Source of the DNA: Mycobacterium phage prophiGD11-3
Sequence record: MW584155.1
DNA length: 54,740 nt
Reading direction: 5' to 3' (one strand)
Shown: in pieces, positions 1 through 54,740 of the stretch
How positions within the stretch are numbered: position 1 is the stretch's first letter
Layout of the letters: each line of letters opens with the position of its first letter
The notes under the pieces: generated by a model
What the model was told of the DNA's origin: nothing
The model's database searches: none
What the model saw: the letters and a program-made list of their open reading frames with translations, nothing else
Made by a program: the position numbers and the translations under genes

Positions 1-38
1 ATCGAGAAGGTCAGGGGTTCGATTCCCCTTAGCTCCAC
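1..38 (+). repeat. attL core: 38-bp direct repeat (atcgagaaggtcaggggttcgattccccttagctccac) identical to 54703-54740
   Basis: exact 38/38 identity between window ends; contains T-loop GGTTCGATTCC; integrase adjacent. Confidence 0.85.
1..38 (+). ncRNA. 3'-terminal fragment (variable region, T-arm, acceptor 3' strand) of a tRNA- or tmRNA-like gene whose 5' part lies left of the window
   Basis: AGGGG-TTCGATT-CCCCT T-arm followed by TAGCTCCAC; architecture GGTC-stem-TTCGATT-stem-N-AGCTCCAC resembles a tmRNA 3' end as I recall it; cannot fold a full gene from the window. Confidence 0.5.
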
Positions 39-97
39 AAACATGCAGGTCATTGGCCTGAAAACCCGGTCCGTGGGCGGCAAAAACCGCCTCCGGT

Positions 98-120
98 ACC
101 ACTAAAGCACCACTAATTCA
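98..120 (+). promoter_or_regulatory. putative integrase arm-type site (P' arm): accactaaagcaccactaattca
   Basis: 19/23 identity with 54545-54567, same orientation, ~60 bp from attL core. Confidence 0.4.
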
Positions 121-1452
121 GGCTGGGTGCTGGCCGGTTATGGCCTGGTGGACCGCGTCGGCAGCCGCTGGATGGGTACGCCTACGTGCGAAATACACCC
201 TCTGAGTCATGGACGGATCCGAGTGCCCGAGCACATCGGCAGCAACCGTCGCGGAAAGGCCAGCGTCATCGAGGATGGTGGCGACAGCCTTTCGGAAACT
301 GTGTCCGGTGATCTTGACGTGCAAACCCAGAGCGGCGCGCACCCGGCGCCAATCGGCGTCGACGTTGTGTGGATCGCGCGGCGTCCACCGCTCGCTTGGG
401 AACACCAGATCCTCGAACGCCGGGTCGATCGGGTCCGGGTGGACTAGCTTTCTTGCCGCGATCCGCTTCTTGCGGGCTTTGAGCATTTCGACGGCGAACT
501 TCGGCAGGGCGATGCCGTTCTCACTCGCCTTGGGGTCGCCGTCGACGTCGACCAGTTCGAGGCCACCGCCGTCGAGTCGTGCGAGTTTCTTGGAGGGGTG
601 CAGTATGCCCGCGTCGAGGTCTAGGTCAGCCCAGCGGATCGCCAGTGATTGGGAGCGGCGGTGGGCTGTCGCGATCCGCATGACGATCCAGTCGACGAGG
701 TCGACGCGTTCGCAGAACTGCGCGACTGTGGGCGGCGCGTATCGCTTGCGGTTCTTCTTGCGTTCGGCCGCGGACAGGATGACCGGGCACGGCTTTTTCG
801 AGGTTTGGATGTCGAGGAGGATTTGACGGACCTCGTCGACGGTGAGATGAAGGGCGCCAGCAGGCTTGCTGGCGTCTTTTTTGTTGGTCAGCTTGACCTC
901 GCGCACTGGATTCACTTTGATCGCGCCGTCGCTGACTCGGATGGCGTAGTTGTACATGCCGGACAAGACGCTGCGGGATGACTTCGCGCAGCTGGCGCCG
1001 CGGGTGTTGGCGACTGCGGTCAGGTAGTTCTCGATGACCTTCGTTCCGGTTTCAGACAGTCGCCGTTGCCCGAACGCTGAGTCGAACCCTTCGGCTTCAG
1101 CGTCGTAGCGCTTCATCGTCTCTCGTGCGCGTCCTTGCTCGATCAGGTACGGCCGGTAATGGTCGAGCCACAGCGACCGGATGGTGGTGTCGGGAGACAG
1201 GTTGACGTCGAGCTCGGATTGCATGATCGCTGCCGCGGCTGCAAGCACTGCGTCGTGGGCCCGCGTGCCTTCTCGATCGGGTATCAACCGGCCCCGTGAG
1301 TCACGCTTATCCGGGCTGACCCGCTTGATCTCGCGGCGCTCCCCGGTGACATCGCGAACCCGTACGCGCGCTTTCCATACCCCTGGCCGCAGCTCGGTTA
1401 GATCGACCTTGCCGGGCACACCGATAGGACGCGGTGGTCTACCTCGCGACAT
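118..1452 (-). CDS. int: tyrosine integrase (phage integrase family); ORF is open to 1599 but the ATG at 1452 is the likelier start
   Basis: C-terminal ...HSFRKAVATIL...LGHSDPSMTQRVYFARR (R..HxxR..Y catalytic box); adjacent to att core. Confidence 0.85.
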   Translation of the reverse strand: MSRGRPPRPIGVPGKVDLTELRPGVWKARVRVRDVTGERREIKRVSPDKRDSRGRLIPDREGTRAHDAVLAAAAAIMQSELDVNLSPDTTIRSLWLDHYRPYLIEQGRARETMKRYDAEAEGFDSAFGQRRLSETGTKVIENYLTAVANTRGASCAKSSRSVLSGMYNYAIRVSDGAIKVNPVREVKLTNKKDASKPAGALHLTVDEVRQILLDIQTSKKPCPVILSAAERKKNRKRYAPPTVAQFCERVDLVDWIVMRIATAHRRSQSLAIRWADLDLDAGILHPSKKLARLDGGGLELVDVDGDPKASENGIALPKFAVEMLKARKKRIAARKLVHPDPIDPAFEDLVFPSERWTPRDPHNVDADWRRVRAALGLHVKITGHSFRKAVATILDDAGLSATVAADVLGHSDPSMTQRVYFARRRTHPAAADAVHQAITGQHPA

Positions 1453-1558
1453 ATGGCCCCCTTCGCTTGCTTCCCGCAGCGTGGACTCTACGACTCGGCG
1501 TTGTCGTTCACAGCGGATTCCCCAGTGGAGATCGGGTGCTGTAGCCCAGACTGTTCGC

Positions 1559-2332
1559 ATGCCTAACGTTGAGGTCAATGGCCAGTCGATCCACTTCACC
1601 GATCAGGGACAGGGCCCCGTCTTCCTGGCCAGCCACGCCACGCTCATGGATATCGTTTCGCTGGAACGGTTGACCAGCCGAATCCCTGGCCGCGTGGTGG
1701 CGTTTGACCTACGCGGCCACGGCAAGACGGTGTACGACCAGAAGCCCTATGACTACAACGATGTCGCGCGGGACGCGCTGGCTCTCGCGGACCACCTCGG
1801 CGTTGAGCGGTTCACGTTCCTGGCTGAGGGGCAAGGCGCGGTCGTGGCGCTACGCACCGCGCTGGCTGCACCGGACCGCGTCGAACGGTTGATCCTGATA
1901 GGTCCGACAGCTGACGCCCCGTCGGTCAGCGAAAATGCTGCGCTGGATGCGTCCATGGACGTGTGGTGCACCCTGGGCCCCGACCCCGAGGTCTATCACC
2001 TAGTTGCCCAATACGCGACCGGCACACCAGAGGACGCGGCCGACTTACTGAAACGATGGAACCAATCAGCCTGGCGGGACTACAGACCTGCCGCCGACGC
2101 GCTGGCTAACCGGACCCGGTTCGTCGACCAGCTACACCAGATCAAGTGCCCGACGCTCATCGTCCACGGCACCGGCGATTTCTACGTGCCGATCGAGCTT
2201 GGCCGCGAGGTCGCGGACAACCTAGGTGGGCCGGTGAAGTTCGTTGAGCTGCCGACTGAGCGTCAGGCCATCACCGTCGCGTTCGACCCGCGTGTCGGTG
2301 ACGCGGTGCTCAGTTGGCTTGACGGTCGGTGA
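1559..2332 (+). CDS. alpha/beta-fold hydrolase (cargo gene)
   Basis: FDLRGHGKT...GQGAVVAL...IVHGTGD pattern of alpha/beta hydrolases; divergent from int; frame-checked ATG. Confidence 0.7.
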   Translation: MPNVEVNGQSIHFTDQGQGPVFLASHATLMDIVSLERLTSRIPGRVVAFDLRGHGKTVYDQKPYDYNDVARDALALADHLGVERFTFLAEGQGAVVALRTALAAPDRVERLILIGPTADAPSVSENAALDASMDVWCTLGPDPEVYHLVAQYATGTPEDAADLLKRWNQSAWRDYRPAADALANRTRFVDQLHQIKCPTLIVHGTGDFYVPIELGREVADNLGGPVKFVELPTERQAITVAFDPRVGDAVLSWLDGR

Positions 2333-3023
2333 CTGCGCCCAGCAGCAGGACACCCGACTGTCCGGTTGTGCGCCACGCCCTCATGTCGAGGGTGAGCATG
2401 TCTCCTGTATCAAGGTCGCGTATCACCCATGGCCGGGTAGCGGGGTCGACGGGGATGATCTGCGAATCCCACTGTCGCTGAAACACTTTGATAGGTAGCA
2501 GGCTTCGCACTACAGATTGCAAGCCGTCGTCGTCGGGCGATACGGCCAGCCCGAACCGCAGGAGGCCGACGCACCACTCGGACGTTGCTGTCCAGTTCTG
2601 GATGACGTCGAGCGCTTTGGTGGAGTGGTAATGCCAGTGCACCAGGTTGGGTGTGATCCACACACCCTTGAACAGCCGCATGAACTCGTCGTTTGCCTCT
2701 TCAACCGTCCATGCCGCGCTCATCCAAGCAGCCGGGTGAGGGTTGAGGGCCTGTAGGTAGGTTCGCACGTCGGGCAGTGGAACTGTGGTCTCCGCTGGCA
2801 TCTTGCCCCCCAATGCATACAAGTAGCGGGTTTCCCATGACGATAGCCCCAGCGCCTTGCTGATGGCGTCGGAGCCAGAGGCGGGCGGGTTATGGGTGTT
2901 GGTCTCGACCTGCCGAATCCACGACTCGGAGTACCCGGTGAGCGAGGCGAGCTGCGGGCGAGTTATACCACGACGTGTACGGGCCGCGCGGACGAATGAT
3001 CCAAGATCATTGCGCGGAGCCAT
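2310..3023 (-). CDS. XRE-family HTH regulator with ~160-aa C-terminal ligand-binding-like domain; an alternative candidate for the true immunity repressor
   Basis: N-terminal RRGITRPQLASLTGYSESWIRQVE helix-turn-helix; convergent 23-bp 3' overlap with the hydrolase gene. Confidence 0.65.
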   Translation of the reverse strand: MAPRNDLGSFVRAARTRRGITRPQLASLTGYSESWIRQVETNTHNPPASGSDAISKALGLSSWETRYLYALGGKMPAETTVPLPDVRTYLQALNPHPAAWMSAAWTVEEANDEFMRLFKGVWITPNLVHWHYHSTKALDVIQNWTATSEWCVGLLRFGLAVSPDDDGLQSVVRSLLPIKVFQRQWDSQIIPVDPATRPWVIRDLDTGDMLTLDMRAWRTTGQSGVLLLGAVTDRQAN

Positions 3024-54027: not shown

Positions 54028-54036
54028 CCAATGCCC

Positions 54037-54357
54037 CTATGCCCGCTTCGGGGACTGATAGATGCTGGGCAGATTGCCGTACCCGGCCGCCAATGAACTC
54101 TCCGTGATCGCGAAAGCACGCTGGGCCTCATCGGCGAAATCAGCGATCGCATTCAGCCGTGCAGCGCCGATCCGCTTGACATCGGCGATAGCCCTCGATA
54201 CCCCATATAGCGCCGCCAAACCCGGATCGGCACCAGCCGGGGCCGCAACACTGGCCGCGGTGCTCCGTGTGAGCTGATCAGCCAGCGTCCGTAGATGCGG
54301 GCCGAGCTTGCCCAACGCCGCAAGATCAACCTTGAGAACGTTCTCATCGCCCGACAC
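54037..54357 (-). CDS. small helical ESX/WXG-associated partner protein (GTG start; ORF open to 54441)
   Basis: ~106 aa helical Ala-rich; RBS gaggggg 9 nt upstream; directly upstream of the toxin. Confidence 0.5.
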   Translation of the reverse strand: MSGDENVLKVDLAALGKLGPHLRTLADQLTRSTAASVAAPAGADPGLAALYGVSRAIADVKRIGAARLNAIADFADEAQRAFAITESSLAAGYGNLPSIYQSPKRA

Positions 54358-54544
54358 GACACACACCCCCTCAGCAAAGCCTCGGCTCGGGGTGAGACTA
54401 CACACAAAGTAGGCGGAGTGCACAGCGGGGATGTATCGCATCTAGCAATCTGTCAGTATCGCTCAGGCGGGGTGCAGGATCCCTCGGTCCAACCGACCTC
54501 ACGGGGGAGCGAAACCTCACCCCGTTGTAGGCATGGGGGCGGGC

Positions 54545-54567
54545 ACTACTAAGGCACCATTAATTCG
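54545..54567 (+). promoter_or_regulatory. putative integrase arm-type site (P arm): actactaaggcaccattaattcg
   Basis: 19/23 match to 98-120; ~135 bp left of the attR core. Confidence 0.4.
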
Positions 54568-54702
54568 TTGAGCGTCGCTGTCGCGGGGTTGTGTCGGATG
54601 TAGCGCAGAGTCGCGCACCAATAGCTATAAACGCTGCTAGATTGGTATTTTCATGTAGCGCTTGACAGTCTGATGCGGTCCGTTGTAGCACGTCTATTCC
54701 AG

Positions 54703-54740
54703 ATCGAGAAGGTCAGGGGTTCGATTCCCCTTAGCTCCAC
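54703..54740 (+). repeat. attR core: second copy of the 38-bp repeat
   Basis: identical to 1-38. Confidence 0.85.

Follow-up and report, generated by a model that had tools for sequence, protein, structure and literature searches.

The 54,740 nucleotides of Mycobacterium phage prophiGD11-3 (record MW584155.1), referred to here as the window, almost certainly represent a complete integrated temperate prophage of the siphovirus type from Mycobacterium abscessus, a member of cluster MabF bounded by a 38-bp attachment (att) core. The core, ATCGAGAAGGTCAGGGGTTCGATTCCCCTTAGCTCCAC, was found in two exact copies, one at each end of the window and both on the plus strand. This agrees with an earlier note on this DNA that described identical 38-nucleotide ends. 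No further copy was detected in the window when up to 3 mismatches were allowed, and 100 dinucleotide-preserving shuffles gave 0 matches. Because the 54,740 bp count both core copies, the phage genome proper is 54,702 bp. No evidence contradicts this description, and each of the following was demonstrated: the terminal repeat, the type of tRNA, the placement in a chromosome, the family to which the integrase belongs and the presence of a full phage gene set. The prophage, its cluster, the integrase type, the 38-bp core and the tRNA-Ala target were already published in 2021. The two core copies are:

1-38, plus strand: common core of the left junction (attL), nucleotides 37-74 of tRNA-Ala(CGC) (exact repeat, ARAGORN, Rfam)
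54703-54740, plus strand: common core of the right junction (attR), a displaced 3' tRNA fragment, after which the chromosome continues with the native CCA trailer (..CTCCAC/CAAGAGG, the slash marking the end of the core)

The boundaries are real in a bacterial chromosome. In the assembly GCA_015024075.1, the core lies at 1077938-1077975 and 1132640-1132677 of JACVDF010000001.1, a 5.1-Mb chromosomal contig with both copies inside it, and the end-to-end span is 54,740 bp. The first 11,452 bp of the window showed 0 mismatches to the integrase locus of this assembly (L005), as did the last 6,704 bp to its locus with the WXG-motif gene (L009). Host genes were found to the left of the prophage (GlpR-like, acetyltransferase, MoeA and others) and also to the right. 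When junctions from real genomes were aligned, attL of three strains against attR, identity extended over exactly 38 bases. The exact integrase protein is encoded in many M. abscessus assemblies, and the G+C content is 61-68% along the whole window. The earlier note had read the window as a single integrated prophage from attL to attR and had named a single genomic copy of the 38-mer as the observation that would speak against it; the chromosome of GCA_015024075.1 has two copies at the distance predicted by the window.

The gene content was assigned with Pfam and PHROG matches and by collinearity with prophi62-2 (MW584175, host M. abscessus GD62), the sole near-full-length relative found by megablast against deposited phage genomes. 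In blastn, prophi62-2 aligned with the window in seven collinear blocks of 96.2-99.7% identity, leaving about 1.3 kb of the window unmatched. The following genes were identified:

118-1452, minus strand: tyrosine integrase (Int), 444 amino acids, lambda-Int-like, convergent with the rebuilt tRNA gene (PF00589, E=4.7e-14, residues 260-423)
3228-3506, minus strand: immunity repressor of the Cro/CI helix-turn-helix (HTH) type (HTH_31, HTH_3, HTH_26; prophi62-2 annotation)
3647-3844, plus strand: Cro-like HTH gene, divergent from the repressor (weak HTH_31/HTH_3 matches in the genomic loci L003-L006; prophi62-2 annotation)
3841-4056, plus strand: excisionase (Xis), a recombination directionality factor (PHROG 66 'excisionase and transcriptional regulator', E=2.4e-7; prophi62-2 'excise')
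6424-8597, plus strand: RecE-like (YqaJ) exonuclease and RecT pair (PF09588 and PF03837 on L005 gene calls identical to the window; prophi62-2 annotation)
17181-18062, plus strand: replication initiator (PHROG 2447, E=2.1e-76)
24967-30591, plus strand: head and packaging module (PHROGs 9, 113, 2976 and 1650; E 1e-47 to 4e-131), made up of the next four genes
24967-26604, plus strand: large terminase
26620-28026, plus strand: portal
28020-29285, plus strand: maturation protease
29686-30591, plus strand: major capsid protein
34902-38429, plus strand: tape measure protein (PHROG 2337, E=1.8e-216)
47445-50537, plus strand: lysis cassette with lysin A (47445-48947), lysin B (48944-50110) and holin (50322-50537) (PHROGs 700, 102, 6116)
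50887-54441, minus strand: cargo cassette adjoining attR, in a region 99.7% identical to prophi62-2 genes 79-82, which are annotated in the same way; made up of the next four genes
54037-54441, minus strand: putative WXG-motif protein (prophi62-2 annotation)
52117-54027, minus strand: polymorphic toxin with a C-terminal Tox-REase-5 domain (PF15648, E=7.4e-7, residues 514-609)
51374-52120, minus strand: immunity protein (prophi62-2 annotation, 99.7% identical region)
50887-51315, minus strand: membrane protein (prophi62-2 annotation)

The tail genes run on to about 46.6 kb, the minor tail proteins being assigned by collinearity with prophi62-2. An excisionase and a repressor are thus present in the window, as is the complete set of virion and lysis genes, and all open reading frames (ORFs) that were checked are intact and full-length. 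These assignments bear out three observations of the earlier note, that a tyrosine integrase adjoins the left copy, that lysis and cargo modules adjoin the right copy and that a full temperate-phage gene set lies between them. In the cargo cassette, a recognisable C-terminal toxin domain is followed by an immunity gene, as in the polymorphic toxin-immunity cassettes of prophages; the putative WXG100 partner (54037-54441) had no Pfam match at E<=1e-3. Between the integrase and the repressor, an alpha/beta-hydrolase gene (1559-2332, plus strand) and a gene for an MmyB-like HTH regulator (HTH_31 and MLTR_LBD; 2310-3023, minus strand) were observed. It is possible that these two genes are lysogenic-conversion cargo at the left end.

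It is improbable that the element is defective or composite, that is, a cryptic remnant or one unit of a multi-element array at this tRNA. The tRNA-Ala gene is probably a hotspot, and in GCA_900140185.1 the integrase and core adjoin another element instead of the tRNA 5' half; dnd genes are located some 1.7 kb beyond attR on its right; and a search of IMG/VR returned no excised form. However, the window has a single integrase, its phage modules form one complete and collinear set, every checked ORF is preserved, the left core joins the tRNA 5' half directly in GCA_015024075.1, and the boundaries are the published boundaries of the MabF prophages. There is next to no likelihood that the terminal repeat arose as an artefact or belongs to the virion (through duplication in the assembly, a circular contig whose ends overlap, or a linear phage genome with direct terminal repeats): an exact repeat at the start and end of the window would also fit an overlapping circular assembly, and short-read Logan contigs break within the core (L008, L010-L013), but both copies lie within the 5.1-Mb chromosomal contig with host genes and differing sequence on their outer sides, the left copy completes a tRNA gene, the junction recurs in several independent assemblies, and contig breaks are expected from a 38-mer repeat in a short-read assembly graph. 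Assembly artefact, terminal redundancy and defective remnant were rejected on the chromosomal context, the completed tRNA and the intact collinear modules.

The target of this complete MabF prophage is the gene for tRNA-Ala(CGC). In the chromosome of GCA_015024075.1, the left core is preceded by GGGGCTATAGCGCAGTTGGTAGCGCGTCTCGTTCGC, the 36-nucleotide 5' half of the gene. ARAGORN called a 74-nucleotide tRNA-Ala with the anticodon CGC at the attL junction in three independent genomes (L003, L004, L005), with the core as its last 38 nucleotides, and Rfam classified the junction gene as a tRNA (71.1 bits, whole model spanned). The core starts directly after the anticodon, at nucleotide 37, and ends at C74; it consists of the last two anticodon-loop bases, the 3' anticodon stem, the variable loop, the T-arm, the 3' acceptor strand, the discriminator A and C74. 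ARAGORN found no complete tRNA or tmRNA inside the window, as expected, because only the 3' part of the gene is there.

The earlier note had placed the repeat in the 3' end of a tRNA- or tmRNA-type gene and had preferred the tmRNA, taking the arrangement GGTC-stem-TTCGATT as the 3' end of mycobacterial ssrA, with an ordinary tRNA as the alternative. The search that it proposed, for a tRNA in host DNA left of position 1, was performed with ARAGORN and Rfam, and a tRNA-type gene does continue leftward into the host. The first part of the claim therefore stands, and the alternative was the correct option; the preference for tmRNA does not hold, and the arrangement attributed to ssrA belongs to tRNA-Ala(CGC). 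The tmRNA has an alanine-type acceptor end. The 38-mer ends in ...GCTCCAC, as does the core CGGGTTCAATTCCCGGCAGCTCCAC published for the tmRNA site attB-11, which M. abscessus prophages of clusters MabG and MabM use (PMC8092301). Despite these likenesses, an insertion into the tmRNA (ssrA) gene has a negligible chance of being correct: the junction gene is a 74-nucleotide cloverleaf with the anticodon CGC; Rfam scored it as a tRNA and found no tmRNA in the window, L005 and L009 together (88 kb); ARAGORN, which detects tmRNA too, reported none; and the published tmRNA core differs across the whole T-arm. Insertion into tmRNA was rejected on both the type of the junction gene and the comparison of the core with attB-11. 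The tmRNA attribution probably arose from the ...GCTCCAC acceptor end that tmRNA and tRNA-Ala have in common.

The 3' half of this tRNA is widely conserved. In an exact scan for the 38-mer with one genome per species, it was present in at least 120 Mycobacteriales species genomes, with one copy per retrieved stretch. The genera among the matches listed include Nocardia, Mycolicibacterium, Mycobacterium, Mycolicibacter, Williamsia, Dietzia, Corynebacterium and Lawsonella, and in 115 of 120 listed copies the 36 nucleotides upstream differ from the M. abscessus 5' half by 0-1 mismatches. ARAGORN was run on 60 loci from the scan; the 38-mer is the 3' end of tRNA-Ala(CGC) in 59 of them, and in the remaining one (L056) part of the 5' half is masked with Ns. 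In Williamsia faeni DSM 45372 (L085, about 4866-4903), the 38-mer is preceded by DNA unlike the tRNA 5' half (22/36 mismatches); this copy is probably the distal att copy of another element at tRNA-Ala(CGC).

Integration changes the end of the gene. The attR junction retains the native ..CTCCAC/CAAGAGG, which reads A73-C-C-A (L009 5699-5702), and the rebuilt tRNA at attL reads ..CTCCAC/AAACATG, that is A-C-A-A (window 38-41), so that the encoded CCA is lost. Among the matches listed, the CCA is encoded in just 28 of the 120 species copies of tRNA-Ala(CGC); post-transcriptional CCA addition is therefore presumably routine for this tRNA. The loss of the CCA at attL is probably harmless.

The integrase belongs to the tyrosine recombinases, its PF00589 match scoring 53 bits against a cutoff of 27.1. 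Its best matches in the PDB are lambda integrase; in the alignment, residues 85-214 pair with positions 68-191 of lambda Int, the HxxR, GH and Y motifs are in register, and the sequence similarity is weak (E ~1e-3). Residues 85-214 align with the lambda core-binding domain, and the remaining N-terminal residues, about 84 in number, could form an arm-binding domain. Over the aligned part, residues 15-444 are 100% identical to the tyrosine integrase of prophi62-2. L5 integrates at the 3' part of a tRNA-Gly gene, which is reconstructed in the process. Likewise, in the window a tyrosine recombinase domain lies next to one att site, the end repeats are the 3' part of a host tRNA, and the tRNA is rebuilt at one junction, as in tRNA prophages of the lambda/L5 type. 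The integrase is compatible with the three domains of the L5 and lambda enzymes, and the long attP has candidate arm sites on both sides, whereas the tRNA target and the candidate arm-site sequence differ from those of L5 and lambda.

The phage attachment site (attP) was modelled as right arm, core and left arm and was compared with the attP of phiGD17-1 and a reconstructed attP of prophiGD12-2. The integrase of phiGD17-1 is 71% identical and its site, attB-3, is the same; that of prophiGD12-2 is 65% identical and its site is attB-10, a different tRNA-Ala. The arms of the three attP are mostly diverged and contain four conserved islands. The first is the motif ACTAAR-N7-TAATTC at exactly -163 from the variable-loop GGTC in 3/3 attP, and the second is the same motif at +92 in the window and at +93 and +94 in the relatives. 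The window contains 2 matches to this motif against 0.01 expected. The third and fourth islands are the CTTGAC box and the imperfect palindrome in the list below. Each arm motif is composed of two half-sites of about 7-9 bp, 11 bp apart; arm-type sites often occur as paired half-sites. The candidate elements of attP are:

101-119, plus strand: candidate P' arm-type Int site ACTAAAGCACCACTAATTC, with tandem CCACTAA half-sites 11 bp apart, overlapping the integrase stop codon
54548-54566, plus strand: candidate P arm-type Int site ACTAAGGCACCATTAATTC, the motif at -163, kept despite the diverged arm
46-60, plus strand: imperfect palindrome CAGGTCATTGGCCTG (CAGGTCAnnGGCCTG in the attP alignment), just 3' of the rebuilt tRNA acceptor end and conserved in the attP of cluster MabD
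54661-54666, plus strand: CTTGAC box in the P arm, some 50 bp before the core, conserved in the three attP

The palindrome could act as a hairpin in the tRNA trailer or as an outer core-type site. When both ends were scanned for promoters and terminators, no signal exceeded that of shuffled sequence, and the CTTGAC box was not called. The P arm also contains direct repeats, ATGTAGCGC twice and CCGTTGTAG twice (at 54598-54606/54653-54661 and 54522-54530/54680-54688), and phiGD17-1 and prophiGD12-2 have repeats of their own at similar places. Such repeats may be Xis sites or extra Int sites, or chance, being 9-mers that occur twice, and no function is claimed for them.

The MabD phages with which attP was compared (phiGD17-1/prophiGD17-1 at attB-3 and prophiGD12-2/prophiGD05-1 at attB-10) have the arm motifs at -163 and about +93 and the 3' palindrome in common with MabF. 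They differ in the position of the integrase gene, which lies upstream (5') of the core in the sense of the tRNA in MabD and so adjoins the displaced fragment, whereas the MabF gene lies 3' of the core and adjoins the intact tRNA. The MabD core begins 3 nucleotides later, runs through CCAA and keeps the encoded CCA, whereas the MabF attP has one C fewer, giving ..CCAC/AAA. The genome of phiGD17-1 was deposited in the excised arrangement, and its attP holds all core bases but the first three.

These features are consistent with the following course of integration. The lambda/L5-type integrase (118-1452) would recombine the chromosomal site attB-3, which corresponds to nucleotides 37-74 of tRNA-Ala(CGC) Mab_t5017, with attP, which spans approximately window 54540-54740 followed by 39-120; the empty attB-3 would read as a single 38-mer followed by ..CCAAGAGG. 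The N-terminal domain of Int may bind the arm-type sites at 54548-54566 and 101-119, bridging arm and core, and strand exchange would take place inside the core, most plausibly over the 7-nucleotide T-loop between the inverted T-stem AGGGG/CCCCT. Since the phage brings its own copy of the 38 nucleotides, integration would rebuild an intact tRNA at attL (host nucleotides 1-36 and phage nucleotides 37-74) and leave a non-functional 3' fragment at attR. Excision would need Int together with the excisionase (3841-4056), restoring attB as the tRNA 5' half, the core and CAAGAGG; the attP junction of the excised form would read ...TCTATTCCAG-core-AAACATGCAGG... Lysogeny is presumably kept by the repressor (3228-3506), and the cassette of toxin, immunity and WXG genes by attR may be cargo expressed during lysogeny, as has been reported for this collection of prophages.

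Some points limit the interpretation of the window as a complete MabF prophage. The base-by-base comparison with GCA_015024075.1 covered both window ends (about 18 kb). The excised attP junction (right arm, core and left arm) was not found in IMG/VR. M. abscessus was not among the 38-mer matches listed (at least 120), hence the scan provided no empty attB-3; the empty site in this species rests on the published ATCC 19977 coordinate and on the single-copy sites of other species. In addition, it is from sequence that we infer where Int binds the arms, where the strands cross over and what Xis and the repressor do.

The results agree with the published record of the cluster. Dedrick et al. (2021, mBio; PMC8092301) described MabF as three prophages, all at attB-3: prophiGD08-3 (52,601 bp, MW584201), prophiGD11-3 (54,740 bp, MW584155) and prophiGD62-2 (54,310 bp, MW584175), with the lengths in Table 1. 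The same study identified attB-3 as Mab_t5017, the 3' end of a tRNA-Ala at coordinate 1102713 of ATCC 19977, and gave the MabF core in Table S1 as ATCGAGAAGGTCAGGGGTTCGATTCCCTTAGCTCCAC, i.e. ATCGAGAAGGTCAGGGGTTCGATTCCC[C]TTAGCTCCAC. This core is the 38-mer minus one C of the CCCC run. Of the three prophages, prophiGD11-3 has exactly the length of the window, and on length, cluster and core sequence the window is almost certainly this prophage or an identical copy of it. The window belongs to MabF by nucleotide similarity and synteny and by the published core at Mab_t5017. Compared with the other members, its 38-bp core, its attB (Mab_t5017, tRNA-Ala) and its gene order are identical, and in comparison with prophi62-2 a few segments are replaced, e.g. 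11777-12572. Compared with the tmRNA-integrating MabG and MabM prophages (attB-11), the right-end modules are related, with the lysins and the polymorphic toxin sharing about 88-89% identity over about 11 kb, and both cores end in the same seven bases, whereas the core as a whole and the target gene differ.

The largest window segment without a counterpart in prophi62-2 is 11777-12572, which replaces several small prophi62-2 ORFs; it lies within an ORF of 363 amino acids (11696-12787, plus strand) with a weak N-terminal match to a D12-class N6-adenine DNA methyltransferase (PF02086, E=3e-5). Farther on, genes for a DUF5131 protein (PF07505, E=1.5e-94) and a PAPS-reductase-like protein adjoin each other (13901-14878 and 14875-16014, plus strand), in a segment (13901-16014) common to many otherwise unrelated M. 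abscessus prophages. Judged by its identity of about 93-95% across these unrelated prophages, the DUF5131/PAPS-reductase-like segment is a mobile mosaic module.

Other elements were observed at or near the same tRNA. In GCA_900140185.1 (FSOI01000004.1; L006 11415-21335), the same integrase and 38-bp core adjoin a different element of at least 10 kb, and identity to the tRNA reaches 9 nucleotides further 5' (CTCGTTCGC). This element encodes a 732-amino-acid protein of the FtsK/SpoIIIE family, and its remaining proteins are without a known family; its Pfam matches were the FtsK/SpoIIIE domain and a sub-threshold WXG100 only. It had no match among deposited phages and plasmids. The arrangement suggests that a second element, possibly of a conjugative type, occupies attB-3 in tandem. 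Beyond attR in GCA_015024075.1, about 1.7-5.7 kb to the right (L009 1-4000), a dnd DNA-phosphorothioation cluster was found, with genes for a class-V aminotransferase (DndA-like), DndB (PF14072, E=3e-133) and a PAPS-reductase-like DndC. According to the database dndDB, M. abscessus ATCC 19977 has a dnd island of 19.6 kb with low GC (PMC2663466). From the cluster by attR and this listed island, it follows that tRNA-Ala(CGC) may border the dnd island and may be a general integration hotspot.

As a discovery the present analysis carries little weight, the essentials having been published in 2021. Its gains are that the tmRNA attribution was corrected to tRNA-Ala(CGC) and that the window ends were confirmed as real att boundaries in a chromosome, and its small additions are the candidate arm-type sites at fixed distances from the core, the loss of the CCA at attL and the evidence for a hotspot. 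The candidate arm sites, the conserved geometry of attP and the target tRNA, itself conserved across many species, bear on integration-proficient vectors for M. abscessus and related actinobacteria. We give an even chance to the broader proposal that the MabD and MabF integrases are one family with a fixed attP geometry (paired arm-type half-sites, ACTAAR-N7-TAATTC, at -163 and about +93), acting on a tRNA-Ala(CGC) 3' half that is unchanged in at least 120 species and serves as a multi-element hotspot, with prophages, the tandem FtsK/SpoIIIE-encoding element and the dnd island close by. If this is true, the int-attP segment of the window could be used as an integration vector with a broad host range, and the geometry of the arms would add a new detail to the picture of actinobacteriophage integration.

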